Below are positions 1-12,246 of a DNA stretch of 64,000 nucleotides, piece by piece. The stretch is from an uncultured Candidatus Rokubacteria bacterium (GTDB lineage: Bacteria; Methylomirabilota; Methylomirabilia; Rokubacteriales; DASRDR01), in the NCBI GenBank assembly GCA_963708025.1, contig CAVPSB010000023.1:1-64000 (forward strand). Direction: 5' to 3'. Position numbers and translations under genes: made by a program. The notes below the pieces were generated by a model, which was given only the letters and a program-made list of their open reading frames with translations, was not told where the DNA came from and ran no database searches. How positions within the stretch are numbered: the stretch's first letter is position 1; the number at the start of each line of letters is the position of its first letter.

Positions 1-104
1 GGATGCTCGCGAGCCGTGGGTGTTCTCGGGGTCGCCCCAGGCTGCCGGCATGGAGGGGTGAGGAAACGGCGCGCTCGACCGAGCGCCCGTGGAGGAGGTG
101 CCCC

Positions 105-1673
105 ATGCGGCAGACACGGCTCCAATGGCTCGCCATCGCAGCCCTGGCCGGGCTGGTCCTGGCCAGCGCGGCCTTCGCCCAGGCCCCGCGGCGCGGCGGG
201 GTGCTCCGCGTCGGCATTCTGGGCGAGCCGCCGGCCCTCGATGCCCACTGGTCGACGACGGCCCTGGTCGAGACGCTGACCAACCACATCTACGAGGGCC
301 TGTACACCCTCGACCAGGACAACCGCCCGATCCCGATGCTGGCCGAGGGGATGCCGGCCGTCTCTCAGGACGGGCTGGTCTACACGTTCAAGCTCCGGCA
401 AGGCGTGCGGTTTCACAACGGAAAGGAGTTGGGCGCCGAGGACGTGGTCGCCTCGCTCAAGCGCTGGGGCCAGCAGGCGAACCAGGGCAAGGTCCTCTTC
501 AAGCAGGTGGCGGAGCTTCGGGCCGTCGACCGTTACACCGTCGAGCTTCGCCTGACGGAACGCTCGCCGATCACGGTGCTCGCGCTGGCTGTCCCGAACA
601 CCTTCGCCGCGATCTACCCGAAGGAGATCGCCGAGAAGTTCCCGCCGGCCCAGAAGGTCACCGAGTACGTGGGGACCGGCCCCTTCCGGGTCGTCGAGTG
701 GAAGCCCGACCAGTACATCCGGATGGTCCGGTTCGATGACTATCGGCCCCGCGGCGAGAAGCCGAGCGGCTACGGCGGCGCGAAGGCGGCCCATGTCGAC
801 GAGATACGCTGGATCCCGGTGCCGGACGTCGCCACGCGGGCCGCCCAGGTGGAGACCGGCGAGCTGGACTTCGCCGACGACCTCTCGCTGGACCAGTACG
901 ACCGGCTCGTCCAAAGCCCGAACGCGCGCCCGCTGGTCGCCAGGCCGTATTTCTGGCTCATCGCCGTCTTCAACAAGAAGGAAGGGGTGATGTCGAACCA
1001 GAAGCTGCGGCAGGCATGGCAGGCCGCGATCGACATCGAGCCGATCATGAAGGTCGTGGCGGCGGGGAAGCCCGAATTCTACCGTCTGGACTCGAGCCTC
1101 GTGTTCCAGGAAGTCCCCGAGTGGCACACGAAGCTCGCCGAGCTCCCCTACAACGAGCGTAACGTCGAGAAGGCGAAGCGACTGATTAAGGAGGCCGGCT
1201 ACAAGGGGGAGCCCATCCGTTTCCTGGCGACCAAGGAGTACAAGATGATGTACGACTTCGCGGTCGTCATGAAGCAGCAGATGGAGGACATCGGGTTCAC
1301 GATCGACCTCCAGGTGGTGGACTGGGCCACGCTGTTGACACGACGATTCAACCCCAAGGAGTACGAGGTCTTCACCACCAGCATTGGCCTCGGGCAGGGG
1401 CTGGATCCGATGTTCCAGGTGATCCTCTCGTGCACCTGGGCCGGGTGGACCTGCGACGAGGAGATCCAGAAGGTCAACCAAGAGCTGGCCCGGGAGACGG
1501 ACCCGAAACGGCGGCGCGCCCTGTGGGAGCGGCAGACGCGGCTCTGGTACGACAAGGTGCCGTCGATCCGCCTCGGTGACCTCCACGGGCTCCGGGCGAC
1601 CCGGAAGAGCGTGAAGGGGTTCAACGAGCGCACCGAGCGCCCGCGCTTCTACAACGTCTGGCTCGAGCCCTGA
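105..1673 (+). CDS. ABC transporter substrate-binding protein, family 5 (peptide/nickel type)
   Basis: GGAGG SD before ATG105; signal peptide; LDAH...IYEGL, YTFKLRQGVRFHNG and VGTGPF motifs. Confidence 0.9.
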   Translation: MRQTRLQWLAIAALAGLVLASAAFAQAPRRGGVLRVGILGEPPALDAHWSTTALVETLTNHIYEGLYTLDQDNRPIPMLAEGMPAVSQDGLVYTFKLRQGVRFHNGKELGAEDVVASLKRWGQQANQGKVLFKQVAELRAVDRYTVELRLTERSPITVLALAVPNTFAAIYPKEIAEKFPPAQKVTEYVGTGPFRVVEWKPDQYIRMVRFDDYRPRGEKPSGYGGAKAAHVDEIRWIPVPDVATRAAQVETGELDFADDLSLDQYDRLVQSPNARPLVARPYFWLIAVFNKKEGVMSNQKLRQAWQAAIDIEPIMKVVAAGKPEFYRLDSSLVFQEVPEWHTKLAELPYNERNVEKAKRLIKEAGYKGEPIRFLATKEYKMMYDFAVVMKQQMEDIGFTIDLQVVDWATLLTRRFNPKEYEVFTTSIGLGQGLDPMFQVILSCTWAGWTCDEEIQKVNQELARETDPKRRRALWERQTRLWYDKVPSIRLGDLHGLRATRKSVKGFNERTERPRFYNVWLEP

Positions 1674-1928
1674 GGGGAGAGTGGCCATGACCGGCCTCGG
1701 ACGCCTCGGCGCAGAAGGGCGCTGGTGTGATCCGGCTGGGGAGTCCGGGGAGCCGCCGACCCCAAACTCCCACTGAACGACGGTGAGCGCGAATGAGACC
1801 ACTCGCGCCGGACCTTGCCGGCTGCCGCCGGTCGATCAGGCTGGCTCCCGCCGCCGCGCCAGAAACGGAACGTCGAGGGCTGAGCCCAGGTCTCCCGGCG
1901 AGAGCGACCCATACCACGGAGCGCCGCG

Positions 1929-2252
1929 ATGCGTCTGACGCCGACCGAGCTGGATCGTTTGACCATCTTCACCGCCGCCGAGCTGGCCCGCCGCTGGCGG
2001 GCCAGGGGATGGCGCCTGAATCACCCGGAGGCGCTCGCGCTGATCTGCGATGAGATGCACGCGGCCGCTCGCGGCGGCGCCTCCTACGAGGAGGTAGTGG
2101 CCGTTGGCCGCAGCGTCCTGACGGAGGACGACGTGCTCGATGGCGTCGCGGACCTGATCGGGACCGTCAAGCTGGAGTGCCTGTTCGGCGATGGCGCCCG
2201 CGTGCTGTACGTGGAGCGTCCCATCGGACCCCGAGCCGGAGCGCGGCCGTGA
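1929..2252 (+). CDS. ureA: Urease gamma subunit-like protein
   Basis: MRLTPTELDRL...LNHPEALALI motif. Confidence 0.9.
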   Translation: MRLTPTELDRLTIFTAAELARRWRARGWRLNHPEALALICDEMHAAARGGASYEEVVAVGRSVLTEDDVLDGVADLIGTVKLECLFGDGARVLYVERPIGPRAGARP

Positions 2253-2647
2253 GACCGGGCGAGATCCTGTTCGCCGACGGGCCGATCCACCTCAACGTCG
2301 GCCGGGCCATCGTCGAGCTCGACGTGACCAGCACGTCCGACCACACGATCTTCGTCAGCTCCCACTTCCCCTTCTTCGAGGTCAACCACCGCCTCATCTT
2401 CGACCGCGCTCTCGCCTGGGGCATGCATCTCGACGTCCCCGCCGGCGATTCCGTGCGGTGGCGGCCCGGGGAGACGAGGCGCGTCCGGCTGGTCGCTTTT
2501 GGCGGGCGCCGCGTGGTCCGCGGCTTCAATGGACTGACCGACGGGCCCGCCACGCCCGAGCGGTTGGCCGGCGGGCTCGCGCGCATGCGCCTGGCCGGCT
2601 ACGGGCACCAGCCCACCGGGCCCGAAGAGGCCGATCGTGGGCGGTGA
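2249..2647 (+). CDS. ureB: Urease beta subunit-like protein
   Basis: GTG start overlaps ureA stop; RPGEI, VSSHFPFFEVN, LDVPAGDSVRWRPG, GFNGL motifs. Confidence 0.9.
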   Translation: MRPGEILFADGPIHLNVGRAIVELDVTSTSDHTIFVSSHFPFFEVNHRLIFDRALAWGMHLDVPAGDSVRWRPGETRRVRLVAFGGRRVVRGFNGLTDGPATPERLAGGLARMRLAGYGHQPTGPEEADRGR

Positions 2648-4307
2648 GCTGAGCCGCCCGGAGTACGCCGCCCGCTACGGCCCGACCGCGGGGGACCGCG
2701 TCCGGCTCGCCGACACCGACCTCCTGGCGCGGATCGAGCGTGACGAAACGAGCTACGGCGACGAGATCCTGCGGGGCTGGGGCAAGACGCTGCGGACCGG
2801 CGTCATGCTGAATGACGAGCTGCCGGCGGCGAGCGAGCTGGACCTCCTCATCACCAACGTGATCGTCCTGGACCCCGTACTCGGCGTGTTCAAGGCCAAC
2901 CTCGGGGTGAAGGACGGACTGATCGTCGGAGCGGGACGCGCCGGCAATGCGGACGTCGTGGACAACCCCGATCTGCTCCTGGGGCCAAACACGATGGCCC
3001 TCTACGGCCAGGGGTACCTCGCGACCCCCGGCGGAATCGATACGCACGTCCATCTGGTCCAGCCGCGGCTCCTGCCGGTCGCGCTGGCGGCCGGCATGAC
3101 GACCCTGATCACCGGTGGCCTCAACGAGAACCCGGCCTTCAACCTGGAGCGCATGTTCCTCGCGTTCGAGGGATGCCCGCTGAACCTCGGCCTCCTCGGG
3201 CGCGCGGCCAGCTACACTGCGGCCCCGCTTGCCCGCCAGATCGAGTCGGGCGCCTGCGGCCTCAAGGTCCACGAGGACTGGGCCGGCTACCCGAGCATCG
3301 TCGACCAGGCGCTGACCGTTGCCGACGCGTACGACGTCCAGATCGCGATGCACACCGACGGCATCAACGAGTCGTGCGAGCTGAACGAGACGGTGGCCGC
3401 CATCGGGGGCCGGGCCATCCACGCCTATCACGTCGAGGGCATCGGCGGCGGCCACGCCCCCGACATCCTGGCCATCGCCGGTGTCGAGAATGTGATCGGC
3501 TCGTCGACCACGCCGACGATCCCGTACGGCCGGAACGTGGTGGCGGAGCATCACGCCATGATGTGGTCGCACCACGGCATGAACCCGCGCGTGCCGAGCG
3601 ACCACGCGATGATCGCCGACCGCATCCGCGACTCCACCATGCGGGCGGAGAGTCTTCTCCACGAGCTCGGCGCGATCAGCATCATCAACTCCGACTCGCA
3701 GGGAATGGGCCGCATCGGCGAAGTGATCCGCCGGACCTGGCAGCTCGCCCACCAGATGAAGCGGCTCCAGGGCGAGTCGGCGCCCGACGACAACCCCCGA
3801 ATCCTGAAATACCTGGCCAAGTACACGATCAACCCCGCGCGGGCGCACGGGGTGGACCGGTGGGTGGGCTCGCTCGAGCCCGGGAAGGTGGCCGACATCG
3901 TGCTCTGGCGACCGGAGTTCTTCGGCGTCAAGCCCGAGCTGGTGATCAAGGGGGGCTATCCCGCCTGGGGAGCGGTCGGCGAGGGCAACGCCTCCGGCCC
4001 GCAGAGCGAGCCCGTGCTCTACGCCCCGCACTGGGGCGGCAGCGGCCTCGCCGCGGCGAGCCTGAGTGTCAACTTCGTGTCGGCTGCCGCGGCGGCGAGC
4101 GGCTTTCGTCGCCGTCTTCGGACACGACGGCGCGCGATCCCGGTGCACGGGACGCGGCGGGTCGGCAAGCGCGACATGCTCTACAACCAGGCGAACCCGC
4201 GGATCGAGATCGATCCGGGTACGGCGGAGATCCGGATCGACGGCCAGCCGTTGCCGCCTCTGCCGACGGACGACCTGCCGATGAACCGCCGCTACTTTCT
4301 GCTGTAG
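2637..4307 (+). CDS. ureC: Urease alpha subunit-like amidohydrolase (divergent active site)
   Basis: GPTAGDRVRLADT, GGIDTHVH, GLKVHEDW, MHTD, HAYHVEG, SDSQGMGR, KYTINPA motifs. Confidence 0.9.
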   Translation: MGGELSRPEYAARYGPTAGDRVRLADTDLLARIERDETSYGDEILRGWGKTLRTGVMLNDELPAASELDLLITNVIVLDPVLGVFKANLGVKDGLIVGAGRAGNADVVDNPDLLLGPNTMALYGQGYLATPGGIDTHVHLVQPRLLPVALAAGMTTLITGGLNENPAFNLERMFLAFEGCPLNLGLLGRAASYTAAPLARQIESGACGLKVHEDWAGYPSIVDQALTVADAYDVQIAMHTDGINESCELNETVAAIGGRAIHAYHVEGIGGGHAPDILAIAGVENVIGSSTTPTIPYGRNVVAEHHAMMWSHHGMNPRVPSDHAMIADRIRDSTMRAESLLHELGAISIINSDSQGMGRIGEVIRRTWQLAHQMKRLQGESAPDDNPRILKYLAKYTINPARAHGVDRWVGSLEPGKVADIVLWRPEFFGVKPELVIKGGYPAWGAVGEGNASGPQSEPVLYAPHWGGSGLAAASLSVNFVSAAAAASGFRRRLRTRRRAIPVHGTRRVGKRDMLYNQANPRIEIDPGTAEIRIDGQPLPPLPTDDLPMNRRYFLL

Positions 4308-4802
4308 GGAAGCCCGCCGCGCGAGCGGACCGCGCGGTCAACGGGCCCCGCCGGTGCCCGCTTCCGTGGCCAACTGACCCATCCCTCCGCCAAAGCGCGT
4401 CCGGGTCGCCTGAGGCGACTATTCGCGCCTTGGTGAGGGGCCCGACCGCAGGGAGAGCGGTGGGCGGGTTTCCGAGGGCAGGGCCGCGGACGCGGTTCCC
4501 GAAGACACCATCTGGAGCACCTACGTTCCGTTAACGAGCGATCGAGCAGCTCAACCGCCGACCATTCCCCGCGGACCTGTTGACCCGTCCCCGCGATGAG
4601 CTGAGCCGGGCGGCCGACAGCACGCGAATCGTCCGCCCAGCCGGCGCCAGGCCGGAGGTCCGAACACCGCCTTGACCTCGGGCGGCGGGGCTAGGCAGAG
4701 TGTTCGGTATGAATTCGGTGAAGGGGAGCCGGGGCGGAGGGGCGTCGGCGGCCCTTTCGCCTCTCGCCTCGCTTCCACGACCGCGTCACCCGTAGCCGGA
4801 GG

Positions 4803-6386
4803 ATGGCCATGCTCGATCTGCTGGTCCGCGGCGGTCTCGTCATCGACGGCACCGGCAACCCCGGCTTCTACGGCGCGGTGGCGGTGGAGGGCGAGCGGGT
4901 CCGAATCCTGCGGGGGAGCCTGGCCGGGATCGAGGCTGCCCGGGTCGTCGACGCTACCGGGCGCGTCGTCTGCCCCGGCTTCATCGACATGCACGCGCAC
5001 TCGGGGCTCGTCATCCTGGCCGAGCCCCGGCACGAGCCGAAGGTCCGGCAGGGCGTGACCACCGAGGTGATCGGCATCGACGGGTGCTCGTACGCGCCCT
5101 TCGAGTCCCCCGACGACCTCCACCGCTTCATCGAGGTCAACTCGGGTCTGGACGGCTGTCCGCCGCTGCCGGGTCGCTGGTCCACCGTCGAGCAGTACCT
5201 GGACTGCTTCACCAGCCGGGTCGCGGTCAACATCGTCTACCTGGTGGGCAACTCGCCGATCCGCATCGCGGGCCTGGGCTGGGACGATCGGCCCGCGACG
5301 GCGGCCCAGCTCGCCAACATGACCGCCGTGCTGCGCACGGCGATGGAGGAGGGCGCCTGGGGCATGTCCACCGGCCTCGACTACCCGCCGGGGAGCTACG
5401 CCGACACGGCGGAGCTGACCGCGCTCTGCCGGCAGGGGGCCGACCTGGGCGGCATCTACCACACGCACGTCCGCTACAGCTTGGGGGACCGCTTCCTGGA
5501 TCCCTTCCGGGAGGCGATCGAGATCGGGCGGCAGAGCGGCATCGCCACCCACATCACGCACTTCTATCACCGCACGACTGCACCGGCCGGCGCGCGCCGG
5601 ATGCTGGAGCTGGTCGAGGACGCGCGCGAGGGCGGCCTGGACGTGACGTTCGACAGCTACCCCTACGTCTTCAGCAGCACCCGGCTCAACATCCTGATCC
5701 CGCAGTGGGCGTTCGACGGCGGCCCCGAGCGGCTCCGGGCCACGCTGGCCTCCCCCGACGGCCGGGCGCGGATGCGGAAGGAGATCGAGCCGCGGGCCGC
5801 CTCCTGGCACGAGATGTGGGTCACCTACTTCAAGCGCCCGGAGCATCACCGGTACGAGGGACGGTCGATCGCCCAGGTCGCCGAGATGATGGGGAAGGAT
5901 CCCGTGGACGCCGTCTGCGACCTCCTGCTCGCCGAGGACCAGCAGGTGTCGTATGTCTCGGCCGGCGCCAACGCCGGGACCCTCCCGAAGTTCGTCAGCC
6001 ATCCGCTGTCGATGGTCGGGAGCGACGCGCTCCTGATCGGCGACTACCCGAGCCCCCGGAGCTACGGGACCTTCCCGATCATCCTGGCCGAGTTCGTCCG
6101 GGAGGACCGGTTCCTGTCGCTCCCCGACGCGATCCGGAAGATGACGTCGTTTCCCGCCCAGCGGATCGGCCTGCCCGACCGCGGGCTTCTGCGTGACGGC
6201 TTCAAGGCCGACATCGTGATCTTCGATCCCAGGACGGTGAAGGCGCCCGCCACCCGCACGCAGCCCAAGCAGTTTCCCATCGGGATCGACTGGGTGATCG
6301 TCAACGGCAAGGTGGTGGTCGAGGGGGGCCGGCACACCGGCGTCCTGGCCGGGCGCGCCCTGCGGCGCGGCCGGCCCTCGACCTGA
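4803..6386 (+). CDS. N-acyl-D-amino-acid deacylase (D-aminoacylase family amidohydrolase)
   Basis: PGFIDMHAHS, QGVTTEVIG, GMSTGLDYPPG, SPRSYGTFP motifs. Confidence 0.88.
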   Translation: MAMLDLLVRGGLVIDGTGNPGFYGAVAVEGERVRILRGSLAGIEAARVVDATGRVVCPGFIDMHAHSGLVILAEPRHEPKVRQGVTTEVIGIDGCSYAPFESPDDLHRFIEVNSGLDGCPPLPGRWSTVEQYLDCFTSRVAVNIVYLVGNSPIRIAGLGWDDRPATAAQLANMTAVLRTAMEEGAWGMSTGLDYPPGSYADTAELTALCRQGADLGGIYHTHVRYSLGDRFLDPFREAIEIGRQSGIATHITHFYHRTTAPAGARRMLELVEDAREGGLDVTFDSYPYVFSSTRLNILIPQWAFDGGPERLRATLASPDGRARMRKEIEPRAASWHEMWVTYFKRPEHHRYEGRSIAQVAEMMGKDPVDAVCDLLLAEDQQVSYVSAGANAGTLPKFVSHPLSMVGSDALLIGDYPSPRSYGTFPIILAEFVREDRFLSLPDAIRKMTSFPAQRIGLPDRGLLRDGFKADIVIFDPRTVKAPATRTQPKQFPIGIDWVIVNGKVVVEGGRHTGVLAGRALRRGRPST

Positions 6387-6392
6387 GGTCAG

Positions 6393-7799
6393 ATGCCGGA
6401 TCGGGTTCCTCCGACTCCCCCCTCCCCCCCGGTGGGTGGGGGAGGGGGGTTGGGGGGATGGGCGGGAGGCCCCGACAAGACCGAGCCGGCCGCCGTCCCC
6501 CGCGTCGTCATCGTCGGTGGCGGCTTCGGCGGCCTCCAGGCTGCGTTCGCGCTGACCCGGGCCCCGGTCCGCGTCACGCTGCTCGACCGCCGCAACCACC
6601 ACCTCTTCCAGCCGCTCCTCTATCAGGTGGCGACGGCCGCGCTCTCACCCGGGAACATCGCCCAGCCCATCCGCCACATCCTCCGCCGGAGCCCGAACGT
6701 CGCCGTGCTGCTGGCCGAGGCGACCGCCGTCGACCTGGCGGGGCGCCGCGTCCTCCTGGCGGATGGGGAGATCGCATACGACTTCCTGATCCTGGCGACC
6801 GGGGCCAGCCACGCCTACTTCGGCCACGACGAGTGGGCTGCCCTGGCCCCGGGCCTGAAGAGCATCGAGGATGCCCTGGAGATCCGGCGCCGGGTGCTCC
6901 TGGCCTTCGAGGCGGCGGAGCGGGAAGGGGACGCGGCCCGGCGGCGAGCGCTCCTGACCTTCGTCATCGTCGGCGGCGGGCCGACCGGGGTGGAGCTGGC
7001 CGGGGCCCTCGCGGAGATCGCCCGCGACGTGCTCGTCCACGACTTCCGGGCGATCGACCCGAGCCAGGCGCGGATCGTGCTGGTCGAGGCGGGCCCGCGC
7101 GTCCTCGGCGCCTTCCCGGAGCCGCTCAGCCGGGTGGCGGCACGGGGGCTGGCGGCCCGTGGCGTGGACGTGCGGCCGGACGCCGCCGTGACGCGGATCG
7201 CCCCGGGGCTGGTCGAAGCCGGCGCGCTCTCGTTCGCGGCCGAGACGGTCCTGTGGGCGGCCGGCGTCCAGGCCTCGCCGATCGCGGCCTCGCTCGGGGT
7301 GCCGCTGGACCGGGCGGGCCGCGTCCTCGTGGAGCCGGACCTGACGGTCCCGGGCCACGCGGAGGTGTCCGTCATCGGGGACCTGGCCGCGTTCCTCCAT
7401 GACCCATCGACCGGCGGCCGGCCGCTGCCCGGCCTGGCGCCGGTCGCGATCCAGATGGGCCGGCACGCCGCCGAGAACATCCGGCGAGTGGCGCGGAGGG
7501 AGGCCCCGCGACCCTTCCGCTACCGGGACCGGGGAATGATGGCGACGATCGGCCGGAACGCGGCGGTGGCCCAGGTCGGCCGGGTCCGGCTCACCGGTTT
7601 TCTCGCCTGGCTGGCGTGGGTCCTCGTGCACATCGTCACTCTCATCGGCTTTCGCAACCGCCTTCTCGTGCTGATCGAGTGGGCCTGGGCCTACGTCACC
7701 TTCAATCGAGGGGTGCGGCTCATCACCGGCCCCCCCGCGCCCGCCGCCCCGGCTCGGACCGCGGTCGCGCCGCCCGAGCGCGAGTCCCGCCCCTCCTGA
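6393..7799 (+). CDS. ndh: Type II NADH dehydrogenase; N-terminus overlaps a repeat, exact start uncertain
   Basis: VVIVGGGFGG, HHLFQPLLYQVATA, VGGGPTGVELAG, MATIGR motifs. Confidence 0.9.
   Translation: MPDRVPPTPPSPPVGGGGGLGGWAGGPDKTEPAAVPRVVIVGGGFGGLQAAFALTRAPVRVTLLDRRNHHLFQPLLYQVATAALSPGNIAQPIRHILRRSPNVAVLLAEATAVDLAGRRVLLADGEIAYDFLILATGASHAYFGHDEWAALAPGLKSIEDALEIRRRVLLAFEAAEREGDAARRRALLTFVIVGGGPTGVELAGALAEIARDVLVHDFRAIDPSQARIVLVEAGPRVLGAFPEPLSRVAARGLAARGVDVRPDAAVTRIAPGLVEAGALSFAAETVLWAAGVQASPIAASLGVPLDRAGRVLVEPDLTVPGHAEVSVIGDLAAFLHDPSTGGRPLPGLAPVAIQMGRHAAENIRRVARREAPRPFRYRDRGMMATIGRNAAVAQVGRVRLTGFLAWLAWVLVHIVTLIGFRNRLLVLIEWAWAYVTFNRGVRLITGPPAPAAPARTAVAPPERESRPS
6400..6475 (+). repeat. Family A C-rich/G-rich palindromic repeat (short form)
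   Basis: CCCCCTCCCCC...GGGGGAGGGGG stem ending GGGCGGGAGG; recurs at several loci; boundaries approximate. Confidence 0.8.
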
Positions 7800-7908
7800 C
7801 CGAGGACCTCCCGATCGGTGGCGCGCGCGCCGCGCGGGCGAATTTACCCCGACCGCCACGGCTGTTATACTGCTGGTCACTCTCTGTCCAGGCGGGAGGC
7901 GACTATCC

Positions 7909-9381
7909 ATGGCGGCCTTGTCCAATTCCGAACGCCAGCGGCTCCGGGTGGCCTTCCAGGCCATCGTCGGGGCCGATGCCGTGGTGACCGATCCGAGCGA
8001 GCTCCTGGTCTACGAGTCGGACGGCCTGACCATCTTCCGGGCGGCGGCCGACGTGATCGTCTTCCCCCGCTCCACCGACGAGGTGGCGGCCTGCGTCAAG
8101 CTGGCGAACGCGGAGGGGCTCCCCTTCGTGGCGCGGGGCGCCGGCACCGGCCTGGCCGGCGGGTGCCTCCCGACCGAGGGCGGCCTGGTGATCGCCCTGA
8201 CCCGGATGACCCGGATCCTCGAGGTTGACTACGACAACCAGATCGCGGTCGTCGAGCCCGGCCTGGTGAACCTCCACCTCTCGCAGGCCCTCGCCGCTCG
8301 CGGCTACTACTACGCCCCGGACCCCTCGAGCCAGATCGCCTGCACCATCGGCGGCAACGTCGCCAACAACTCGGGCGGGCCCCACACGCTGAAGTACGGC
8401 GTGACGACGAACCACGTGCTGGGGGTGGAGGTCGTCCTGCCGGACGGCGAGGTCGTCTGGCTCGGTGGTCGGGTCCGCGACGGGCAGGGCTACGACCTGG
8501 TCGGGGTCTTCGTCGGATCGGAAGGGACCTTCGGCATCGCCACCAAGATCGCCGTCCGGATCCTCCGGCGGCCCCAGGCGGTCAAGACCCTGCTGGCAGT
8601 GTTCGATGTCCTCGATCAGGCCTCGCAGACCGTCGCCGCCATCACCGCCCGCGGGCTCACCCCGGCCGCGGTGGAGATGATCGACCACCTCACCATCCAG
8701 GCCGTCGAGGACGCCTACGGCGCCGGCTACCCGCGGGACGCGGCGGCGGTGCTCCTCATCGAGCTGGACGGGCTCGCGGTCGGCCTCGAGGAGGAGGCCG
8801 AGCACGTCGTGGCGGCGTGTCGCGAGAACGGGGCCCGGGACGTGCGGATCGCCCGGGACGAGGCCGAGCGCCAGCTCCTCTGGAAGGGGCGCAAGTCGGC
8901 GTTCGGGGCCTACGGCCGGATCACGCCGGCCTACTTCGTGATGGACGGGGTGATCCCGCGCACCCGGCTGCCCCAGGTCCTCCGGCGCATTGACCAGATC
9001 GTGACGGCGCACGGGCTTCGGGTCGGCAACGTCTTCCACGCGGGTGACGGGAACCTCCACCCGAACATCCTCTACGACCCCCGCAATCCGGGCGAGGTCG
9101 AGCGCGTGCTGGCGGCCGGCGCCGAGATCATGAAGGTCTGCGTCGACGTCGGCGGCTCGATCTCCGGCGAGCACGGGATCGGGATCGAGAAGCAGAACTT
9201 CATGCCGTGGATCTTCTCGGCGGCCGACCTCGAGGTCATGGCCGGGGTGAAGGCGGCCTTCAACCCCGGCGGGCGCTGCAACCCCGGCAAGATCTTCCCC
9301 ACCGCCAAGTCCTGCGTCCCCGGCGAGATCGCCTATCGCCCGCATCCGATCGAGGAGCGCGGTCTGGCCCAGCGCCTCTGA
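7909..9381 (+). CDS. glcD: Glycolate oxidase FAD subunit
   Basis: ARGAGTGLAGG, PDPSSQIACTIGGN, FHAGDGNLHP, SGEHGIG motifs. Confidence 0.92.
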   Translation: MAALSNSERQRLRVAFQAIVGADAVVTDPSELLVYESDGLTIFRAAADVIVFPRSTDEVAACVKLANAEGLPFVARGAGTGLAGGCLPTEGGLVIALTRMTRILEVDYDNQIAVVEPGLVNLHLSQALAARGYYYAPDPSSQIACTIGGNVANNSGGPHTLKYGVTTNHVLGVEVVLPDGEVVWLGGRVRDGQGYDLVGVFVGSEGTFGIATKIAVRILRRPQAVKTLLAVFDVLDQASQTVAAITARGLTPAAVEMIDHLTIQAVEDAYGAGYPRDAAAVLLIELDGLAVGLEEEAEHVVAACRENGARDVRIARDEAERQLLWKGRKSAFGAYGRITPAYFVMDGVIPRTRLPQVLRRIDQIVTAHGLRVGNVFHAGDGNLHPNILYDPRNPGEVERVLAAGAEIMKVCVDVGGSISGEHGIGIEKQNFMPWIFSAADLEVMAGVKAAFNPGGRCNPGKIFPTAKSCVPGEIAYRPHPIEERGLAQRL

Positions 9382-9402
9382 CGCTGGGCCGGGGGATCTG
9401 CC

Positions 9403-10765
9403 GTGCCGGTGAGCCCCGCGTTCCTCCGAACCCTCGCGGACGTCGTCGGCGCCGCTCACTGCCTCGTCGGCGCCGATCGGGGTCCCTTCGTCGTCGAGGG
9501 CCGAACGCCCTGCGCCGCGGTGTTTCCCGGCACCGCCGACGAGGCGGCCCGCGTGGTGAGGGCGGCGGCCGCCGCGGACGTCCCGGTGATCCCGTGGGGC
9601 GGGGGGACCCAGATGGGCCTCGGCGCGCCGCCGCGAGACGGGGCGGTCGTCGTCGGGACCGGGCGCCTCGGCCGGATCGTCGAGCACGAGCCGGGCGACC
9701 TGACCGCGACCGTCGAGGCCGGGGTCACGATGGACATGCTCCAGGCGGCGCTGGGTGCGAAGGGCCAGTGGGTGTCGCTGGACCCGCCCCTGCCCGGTCG
9801 GGCGACGCTGGGCGGGGTGCTGGCGGCCAACGGCTCCGGGCCCCGCCGCTACCTCTACGGCACGGCCCGTGACGTCGTGATCGGTCTCCGGGTGGTGGCT
9901 CCCGATGGCGAGATCGTCCGGTCCGGCGGGAAGGTCGTGAAGAATGTCGCCGGCTACGACCTGGTGAAGCTGTACATCGGATCCCTCGGGACCCTGGGGC
10001 TCATCGTCGAGGCGACGCTCAAGCTCCGGCCGCTCCCCGAAGCCGACCGGGCGTGCTGGGGCGCGTTCGCGGACCTGGCGAGCGCGGGCGCGGCGGTGCG
10101 GGCGGTCATGGCCTCCGACCTCGTCCCGCACGCCATCGAGTTGCTCGACGCCGAGGCGGCCGGCGCCTGCGGCGCGGTCGCGGAAGGCGCCGGCGCCACC
10201 GTGCTCCTCGGGTTCGACGGCCTGCGGAGCACCGTCGCCTGGCAGCTCGGCGAGGCCGAGCGGCTCCTCCGGGGCGCGGGCGCCCGGGCGGTCGTCAGCC
10301 TGGACGACCAGGCCTCGATCGCGACGCTGGCGGGGGTACGGGACGTTCGGGTGGGGCGGGTCGGGGCGGGCGGGGGCGCCGGAGCCGCTGGCGGTGGCGC
10401 GGGCGGCGCTCCTGCCGACCCACGTCGCGCCCTTCATGGCCGAGGCGGCGGCCGGGGTCCGTGCGACGGGACTGCGGCTGATGGCGGCTGCCCACGCGGG
10501 GAACGGGATCGTGACCGTCCTCCTGACGGCGAGCGAAGGAGAGGCGCGCGGCGTCGGGGGCACCGTGAAGGCTCTGGCCGGGCTGCGCGATCAGGCCCGC
10601 GCCGCCGGGGGCGAGTTGGTGATCGAGTGGGCGCCGCTGGCCGTCAAAGAGGAAATCAGCGTGTGGGACAGTCCAGGGGCGTCGGTCCGGCTCATGGAGC
10701 GGATCAAGGTCCGGCTCGACCCGAAGGGGATCATGAACCCGGGGCGGCTGGTCGGCGGCATCTGA
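9403..10765 (+). CDS. glcE: Glycolate oxidase subunit GlcE; frameshift in G-rich tract ~10350-10378
   Basis: GGKVVKNVAGYDL in the first frame; LDPKGIMNPGR C-terminus in ORF 10394-10765. Confidence 0.85.
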
Positions 10766-10769
10766 GAAT

Positions 10770-10898
10770 AGGGTGTGAACGAATCGGTGCTCCGGCTCTC
10801 CCCTCCCCCCCGGCCAAAGGCCGAAGGCCGTCCATCGGTGGGGGAGGGGGGCCAAAGGCCGAAGGCCGGCAAAGGATCGGGTAGGCGGGAGGTTCCGA
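10770..10898 (+). repeat. Family A repeat (long form with GGCCAAAGGCCGAAGGCCG modules)
   Basis: Starts AGGGTGTGA, ends GGCGGGAGG; similar to 50195-50338. Confidence 0.8.
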
Positions 10899-10902
10899 AC
10901 TG

Positions 10903-12246
10903 ATGGGCGTGTCGCTGGCGACCGCGCCGCCGGGCGTTCCGGCGCGCCGCGAGGGGTTCGCGGAGCTCGAGTACGAGAAGCTGCTCGCGTGCGTTCACTG
11001 CGGGTTCTGCCTCCCGACGTGTCCCACCTACGCCGAGAACGGCCTCGAGATGGACTCGCCGCGCGGGCGCATCTACCTCATCAAGGCCCTCGCCGACGAT
11101 CGGATCGCGCTCACGGACCCGGTGGTCGAGCACCTGTCGCTGTGTCTGGACTGCCGGGCGTGCGAGACCGCCTGTCCGGCCGGCGTCCAGTACGGCCACC
11201 TCATCGAGGCGGCGCGGGCCGAGATCGAGCGCCAGCGGCCGGGCTCGGTGTTCCGCCGGCTCGTGCGATACGTCGCGTTCACCCGGCTCCTGCCGAACCC
11301 GGCGGCGCTCCGCCTGCTGGCGGCGGCGCTGCGCGCCTATCAGCGGAGCGGGCTCCAGGCGCTGGTCCGCGGGAGCGGCCTCCTCCGGCTACTCCCGGCC
11401 ACCATCGCCGCCTCGGAGTCCCTGCTGCCCTCGCTTCCCCCAGCCAGCGACCGCGGACCCCTGCCGCCGACCGTCCCGGCCCGCGGTGAGCGGATCGCGC
11501 GGGTGGGCTTCTTGCACGGCTGCGTGCAGGACGTCGTCTTCCGGGCCCACAACCTGGCGACGCTCCGGCTCCTCACGCGGAACGGGTACGAGGTCGCCAT
11601 CCCGCCGACCCAGCGCTGCTGCGGCGCCCTCCACGCCCACGCTGGGGATCCCGAGCGCGCCCGGTCGCTGGCCCGGGACAACATCGCGGCGTTCGAGGCG
11701 GCGGGCGTGGAGACGGTCGTGGTGAACGCCGCCGGCTGCGGGGCGCACCTCCGGAACTACGGCCACCTGCTGCGGGACGATCCCGCGTGGCATGAGCGGG
11801 CGGCGGCGTTCGCCCGCGCGGTGGCCGACGTGACCGCAGTGCTGGCGCGGCACCCGCTGGCCGGGCCCCTGGGGCCGCTGCCGATGCGGGTCGCGTACCA
11901 CGATCCTTGTCATCTGGCTCACGGGCAGAAGGTGCGGAGTGAGCCGCGGGCGCTGCTCCGGGCGATCCCGGGCCTCGAGCTGACCGAGCTCCGGGAGTCC
12001 GAGATGTGCTGTGGCTCGGCCGGGATCTACAACCTGACCGAGCCCGAGATGGCGCGGCGGCTCCTCGTGCGCAAGGTCGGCCACCTCCAGGCGACCGGGG
12101 CCGAGGCGGTGGTGACCGCCAACCCGGGCTGCATTTTACAAATCGCCGCCGGTCTTCGCGAGCGGGGCGTCCCCATGCGGGTGCTCCACATCGTGGAGGT
12201 GCTCGACGCCGCCTACGCGGCGGCGGAGGGTCCACGGAGCGGCTGA
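10903..12246 (+). CDS. glcF: Glycolate oxidase iron-sulfur subunit
   Basis: CVHCGFCLPTCP and CLDCRACETACP ferredoxin motifs; two CCG domains. Confidence 0.92.
   Translation: MGVSLATAPPGVPARREGFAELEYEKLLACVHCGFCLPTCPTYAENGLEMDSPRGRIYLIKALADDRIALTDPVVEHLSLCLDCRACETACPAGVQYGHLIEAARAEIERQRPGSVFRRLVRYVAFTRLLPNPAALRLLAAALRAYQRSGLQALVRGSGLLRLLPATIAASESLLPSLPPASDRGPLPPTVPARGERIARVGFLHGCVQDVVFRAHNLATLRLLTRNGYEVAIPPTQRCCGALHAHAGDPERARSLARDNIAAFEAAGVETVVVNAAGCGAHLRNYGHLLRDDPAWHERAAAFARAVADVTAVLARHPLAGPLGPLPMRVAYHDPCHLAHGQKVRSEPRALLRAIPGLELTELRESEMCCGSAGIYNLTEPEMARRLLVRKVGHLQATGAEAVVTANPGCILQIAAGLRERGVPMRVLHIVEVLDAAYAAAEGPRSG

Follow-up and report, generated by a model that had tools for sequence, protein, structure and literature searches.

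A conserved urease-related subfamily with an altered substrate pocket and a substituted UreD-docking surface

The 64,000-nucleotide stretch of DNA analysed here (the window) carries a urease-like gene trio whose catalytic subunit keeps the residues of urease chemistry but, judged by its sequence, fails to look like a canonical urease in three respects: the walls of the pocket, the surface that docks UreD, and the accessory genes. The variant is no collection of private changes but represents a conserved subfamily, spread over several phyla and separate from canonical urease. Its source genome (G000, a soil-type bacterium) encodes a canonical urease as well as this second, variant relative. Urease is the textbook example of a nickel enzyme with almost a single substrate and a dependence on a metallochaperone tunnel. 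With slightly more confidence than doubt, we read the variant as a three-subunit dimetal amidohydrolase of the urease family that would mature without UreDFG and hydrolyze an N-substituted urea (R-NH-CO-NH2). With the canonical nickel ureases (UreABC of K. aerogenes, 1FWJ/2KAU, S. pasteurii, 4UBP, and H. pylori, 1E9Z; EC 3.5.1.5) it shares gene order, fold, metal ligands and the catalytic His, Arg and Asp. It differs from them by a 10-residue deletion in the Ala167 loop, the changes Ala363 to Gly, Cys319 to Val or His and His321 to Gly, and two new pocket tryptophans, and it lacks the UreD-docking residues, linked ureDEFG and urt genes.

The three genes overlap at their stop and start codons, and all three frames are intact (Table 1). 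No sigma-70-like promoter was found near the genes, and eight loci gave no match to Rfam. UreC reaches 643.4 bits against the equivalog model TIGR01792, below its cut-off of 680, and passes only the broader subfamily model PRK13207. Foldseek recovers the urease fold (TM ~0.70, 44-46% identity to canonical ureases). The AlphaFold2 model, made from a 20-row alignment only, has a mean pLDDT of 58, falling below 50 in loop 162-165.

Table 1. Coordinates of the ureABC-like genes and their immediate neighbours in the window.
Feature	Coordinates	Strand	Evidence
Family-5 solute-binding protein, upstream	105..1673	+	PF00496 (SBP_bac_5)
ureA-like gamma subunit, 107 aa	1929..2252	+	PF00547, E 1.7e-31; TIGR00193 above cut-off
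ureB-like beta subunit, ~132 aa	2249..2647	+	PF00699, E 2.2e-33; TIGR00192 above cut-off
ureC-like catalytic subunit, 556 aa	2637..4307	+	PF00449 and PF01979
D-aminoacylase-like amidohydrolase, downstream	4803..6386	+	1m7j, E 1.6e-65

The ligand motifs of UreC lie at residues 135 (DTHVH), 210 (KVHEDW), 238 (MHTDG), 262 (HAYHVEG) and 352 (SDSQGMGR). They had been called intact in a preliminary description of this DNA, and alignment to solved ureases confirms all six dimetal ligands (H137, H139, K210, H239, H265 and D353); the other catalytic residues H212, H313 and R329 are also kept. In ureases Ala167, Ala363 and the flap shape the urea site, and nickel ureases normally need UreDEFG. The loop around Ala170 (K. 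aerogenes Ala167), put earlier at some ten residues shorter, is shorter by exactly ten, because the numbering offset to S. pasteurii UreC is 0 at H137/H139 and has reached 10 by K210 (K220 in S. pasteurii); the deletion falls after G161. The replacement of Ala363 by Gly holds as first described, G356 corresponding to S. pasteurii Ala366. For the flap, the earlier account was right that Cys319 is lost (H312, S. pasteurii Cys322) but is refined in its detail: the His320 equivalent is retained as H313, His321 is Gly, and the His found in place of the cysteine is local to the window, the family consensus being Val.

The best 120 database matches to the window UreC are all 81-93% identical to it. 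Among 79 genome loci, 21 are 79-87% identical, and these come from Rokubacteria/Methylomirabilota, Burkholderiales, Planctomycetota, Chloroflexota, Gammaproteobacteria, Nitrospiraceae and Acidoferrum; metagenomes supplied 79 further loci. An alignment of 195 sequences (the window UreC, the 120 database matches and 74 locus proteins, split and short-match loci being left out) was divided into 141 members of the variant family, 50 canonical sequences, of which ~20 are from Nitrospira and hence not independent, and four divergent ones that were set aside. The equivalents of the six ligands (His134, His136, Lys217, His246, His272 and Asp360) and of His219, Asp221, Gly277, His320, Arg336 and Met364 are present in all 141. 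Just as invariant are Gly356, Trp310 and Trp48, where all 50 canonical sequences have Ala, Met/Ile/Leu and Gly, respectively. The Cys319 position is occupied by Val (139/141) or His (2/141), as against Cys in 47 of the 50 canonical sequences. In a FastTree phylogeny of 64 UreC sequences the variant family has support of 1.0 and falls, together with further short-loop UreCs, in a group separate from canonical ureases (0.988). The branch support and the TIGR01792 score below cut-off bear out the earlier proposal of a separate subfamily. Those members whose annotation was looked up bear no more specific name than 'urease subunit alpha' or 'hypothetical protein', and a search of the ESM Atlas gave only unnamed urease-alpha clusters. 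No close variant was found on plasmids (164 records, all below 60% identity), and searches of the open-access literature yielded no study of the subfamily and no characterized member.

Urease-fold proteins without ligands are known in the database, and one variant-family locus (L028) is split, so the variant could be a urease copy that is in decay or has lost catalysis. This is the least probable of the readings weighed here: the frames are intact, the ligands are invariant, and dN/dS is ~0.10-0.17 in eight pairs, which indicates purifying selection on the variant ureC. Separately, P0138, P0153, P0157, P0158, P0160, P0179 and others form a clade of their own: these urease-alpha homologues are of full length, but most of their metal ligands are gone (pseudo-ureases).

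The accessory genes are missing from the surroundings of the variant. Searches by tblastn with the genome's own UreD, E, F and G gave no match in the 64-kb window, in agreement with the preliminary description, against 46, 4, 42 and 47 in control loci; likewise, no accessory gene was found beside the variant across 101 loci (928 kb), where the controls gave 46 for UreD, 42 for UreF and 47 for UreG. The genome does encode ureE, F, G and D, on contig C13, but beside the separate, canonical ureABC. This ureABC-EFGD cluster (C13 ~100700-105700, L087) is the only UreD-bearing operon among 15 examined genomes of this family. Contamination was rejected as its source, the 707-kb contig having a tetranucleotide correlation of 0.999 with the genome. 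UreD and UreF are missing from 14 of the 21 variant-family genomes, and the remaining seven all carry a canonical ureC. A survey of 170 genomes of the phylum (≥85% complete), which overlaps with the set of 21 and like it includes related, non-independent genomes, found the variant in 13. A full canonical urease accompanies it in six of these; the other seven, 88-99% complete, belong to one sister genus (g4) and have no canonical UreC, UreD or over-cut-off UreG. UreD was found in none of the nine g4 genomes. One type of variant operon (10 loci) includes a CobW GTPase, possibly an alternative metal chaperone; no close homologue of this CobW was found in G000.

The docking surface for UreD has changed as well. 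In the cryo-EM study of the H. pylori UreD/urease complex, the substitutions UreB Y543A, UreA E177A and UreB D336A are each described as abolishing activation, and UreB Val332 as docking into UreD (PMC10121161). The window has Ala530, Ala327 and His323 of UreC at Y543, D336 and V332, and Arg72 of UreB at E177 (UreB residues 3-118 align without gaps to 1e9y_A 108-223). Across the family, the Y543 position is Val, Ala or Ile in 141/141 (Tyr in 50/50 canonical sequences), the D336 position is Ala in 135/141 (Asp or Glu in 48/50), and the V332 position is Arg or His in 141/141 (Val in 45/50). Glu is found at the E177 position in none of the 82 variant loci that could be aligned (100 examined) versus all 54 aligned canonical loci (56 examined). 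R338 and R340, in the UreD-docking and tunnel region, are retained. The substitution of docking and tunnel residues, together with the seven sister-genus genomes that have neither UreD nor UreG, makes independence from UreDFG well supported; since the surface for nickel-loading helpers is lost, the variant probably matures on its own. The self-activation once suggested for this enzyme is thus well supported, by the docking residues and by the genomes devoid of UreD, F and G. The same evidence makes it very improbable that the variant is a plain nickel urease paralogue for which the C13 ureEFGD provide maturation in trans: G000 does encode all four helpers, on a contig that matches the genome in composition, but the window natively has Ala in place of Y543 and D336 and Arg in place of E177, positions at which Ala blocks activation in H. 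pylori as described there (PMC10121161), and UreD and UreG are missing in all seven variant-bearing g4 genomes.

A helper-free enzyme might still act on urea. Such an isoenzyme, perhaps with Fe, Zn or Mn or with self-loaded Ni, would have an open pocket that serves self-maturation and would clear intracellular urea arising from ureide pathways; we consider this possible, though distinctly less probable than hydrolysis of a substituted urea. The side-chain residues needed for the urea mechanism are all kept, the variant is the sole UreC in 14 of the 21 family genomes, and its varied neighbours would fit a general downstream enzyme. There are also precedents. The B. subtilis control genome, like those with the variant alone, has ureC but neither UreD nor UreF. 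B. subtilis urease has low helper-free activity, and its pocket is canonical. The UreA2B2 urease of H. mustelae (3QGA), which is a second urease beside another as in G000, presumably matures independently of accessory proteins. It is an iron enzyme that accompanies the nickel urease of that species (PMC3919588). In alignment, UreA2 has no equivalent of Glu177, and Gln stands at Asp336; both residues are also lost in the variant. However, 3QGA hydrolyzes urea and keeps the full loop, the Cys-His-His flap and Ala363, so that helper loss alone requires no such remodelling. The pocket changes are fixed in 141/141 variant sequences, and the genomes that contain only the variant have no UrtA, points that likewise speak against urea.

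The position of these changes may point to a different substrate. In urease, the backbone carbonyls of Ala170 and Ala366 are reported to hold the Ni2-bound NH2 of urea, and the C-beta methyl of Ala366 to pack on the Ni2 water (PMC7433671). Because both residues contact the Ni2-bound NH2, the two pocket changes affect a single side of the substrate, and the variant retains the groups that act on the carbonyl and on the leaving NH2. Such a pattern would fit R-NH-CO-NH2. As Ala167 and Ala363 act via their backbone carbonyls, Gly keeps the hydrogen bond, and the shorter loop might still supply one. At the pocket entrance, Trp48 of the variant stands where H. pylori has Gly47', described as lining the entrance from the neighbouring subunit (PMC7801526). 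With two family-invariant tryptophans at the entrance the cavity is reshaped, not necessarily larger; W48 and W310 would add bulk and may refill the pocket. The larger amide, ureide or carbamate substrate proposed in the preliminary description is a candidate.

For an N-substituted urea the following reaction can be proposed. CO2 would carbamylate Lys210, and the metal (Ni, or Zn, Fe or Mn as in related self-maturing amidohydrolases) would load with no need of a tunnel, since the opened site would assist. Metal 1 would bind the carbonyl of the substrate, and the R-bearing nitrogen would occupy the room freed near metal 2. Attack by the bridging hydroxide would release NH3, and the carbamate would decay to R-NH2 and CO2. 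Urea itself would be left to the canonical urease on C13. That the second NH2 is no longer gripped would also suit a hydrolase of carboxamides, half-amides or cyclic imides that takes no ureido substrate and has a role nearer to hydantoinases and amidases, and amidases and a PgdA/PuuE-like hydrolase do occur among the neighbours. Yet the equivalents of His320, Gly277, Arg336 and Met364, which attend the leaving amino group in the small urea cavity, are invariant, and the same operons already contain amidases, which makes this reading unlikely.

Gene neighbourhoods vary. The preliminary description had pointed to a family-5 solute-binding protein and a D-aminoacylase; both do flank ureABC, but they say little on the substrate, because orthologues of neither were found beside any other variant locus examined. 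The solute-binding protein is at most 35% identical to those beside other variant loci. The Mo-hydroxylases, solute-binding proteins and amidohydrolases that recur beside various loci share only 25-43% identity and are not orthologous, so we gave them no weight as pointers to the substrate. Further downstream, glcD/glcE/glcF-like glycolate oxidase genes lie at 7909-12246 of the window, where glcE appears split (frames 9403-10884 and 10394-10765), perhaps by a frameshift. Grouping at 92% identity sorts the 101 variant loci into 25 groups, whose neighbourhoods differ. In the closest large group to the window, the genes follow those for a threonine-synthase-like PLP enzyme and for a Mo-hydroxylase subunit. 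No agmatine deiminase was found among ~270 neighbour proteins scanned at representative loci.

One neighbour recurs. A dihydropyrimidinase orthologue (TIGR02033; 76-78% identical across two gene orders) adjoins 14 variant loci from three UreC lineages; it is accompanied by N-carbamoylases, which differ between the gene orders, and one of the two orders adds an ABC transporter, a PgdA/PuuE-like hydrolase and CobW. These neighbours, along with the pocket changes on the Ni2 side, are why we favour an N-substituted urea, at a little better than even, over plain urea, which we would grant something under a third. The substrate may be a ring-opened ureide or an alkylurea from pyrimidine, hydantoin or purine breakdown. 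The link to the dihydropyrimidinase pathway is not obligatory. This dihydropyrimidinase is absent from G000 and occurs in eight of the 170 phylum genomes, only two of which have the variant (2 of the 13 variant genomes). In the six without the variant, the operon is intact but has no ureABC in two, and the contig ends first in four. The intact ureABC-less operons adjoin Mo-hydroxylase and nitrilase-family genes and include one that, from its motifs, we take to be AtzD/barbiturase-like. The barbiturase route ends in free urea, and this gene therefore suits a helper-free urea enzyme. A rokubacterial cyclic-ureide operon (L202:661-17000, and L204) combines nitrilase-family, AtzD/barbiturase-like, Mo-hydroxylase, ABC transporter, CE4 hydrolase, CobW, dihydropyrimidinase and carbamoylase genes; its CE4 hydrolase is very close to H. 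pylori PgdA, a hint that PgdA-like proteins act on cyclic ureides. Urea transport follows the canonical urease, not the variant: UrtA scores above cut-off in five of 15 genomes, all with a canonical ureC, and in none of nine in genus g4, while that of G000 lies just under it (475 versus 493 bits).

Other UreCs have similarly shortened loops. These lineages (L029, L083, P0124-P0139 and the NRPS-linked proteins of Streptomyces and Embleya) also keep the ligands, but they are 45-55% identical, have other loops, flaps and neighbours, and are named only 'urease subunit alpha'. L083 adjoins an amidase and an agmatinase, and L029 adjoins a DUF1989 gene. At L197-L199 (plasmids of Streptomyces anulatus, Embleya and Streptomyces, ~1-11500), short-loop ureAB and ureC without accessory genes lie inside a conserved NRPS operon, with NRPS genes, a C domain, a phosphotransferase, a 528-aa protein without a Pfam match and a 2OG-Fe oxygenase; this UreC is possibly a tailoring ureido hydrolase. 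Lentibacillus jeotgali (L081:8001-9704) has a long-loop UreC with an altered flap in a genome without UreD or UreF. On plasmid pSR3 of Aminobacter sp. SR38 (L200:7001-8716), a urease with a slightly shortened loop has Gly in place of Ala363 and is accompanied by ureG/D/F, an ABC transporter and folD upstream; it is a candidate methylene-urea or methylurea hydrolase. Because it keeps ureG/D/F, Gly363 alone is not diagnostic. Methylenediurease (EC 3.5.3.21) is listed among nickel enzymes (PMC2691836). The enzyme hydrolyzes substituted ureas and is a precedent for the role proposed for the variant.

What is new here is the loss of the UreD interface at residue level combined with counts of accessory genes at genome level. 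A natural family retains the catalytic core yet has fixed substitutions at positions where such changes prevent maturation in H. pylori, which raises the questions of how a urease site is loaded with metal without UreDFG and whether the urease scaffold has changed substrate. A helper-free urease would be easy to express; a hydrolase of substituted ureas would close a gap in the breakdown of nitrogen heterocycles and alkylureas and correct ureC-based counts of ureolysis in soils. There is an even chance, in our judgement, that the urease scaffold has radiated widely and unnoticed into hydrolases that mature by themselves, possibly without nickel, and that act on N-substituted ureas and ureides rather than urea; all annotated ureC, they would include the variant family as one branch. 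If so, ureC annotation would inflate estimates of urea use from soil and groundwater metagenomes.
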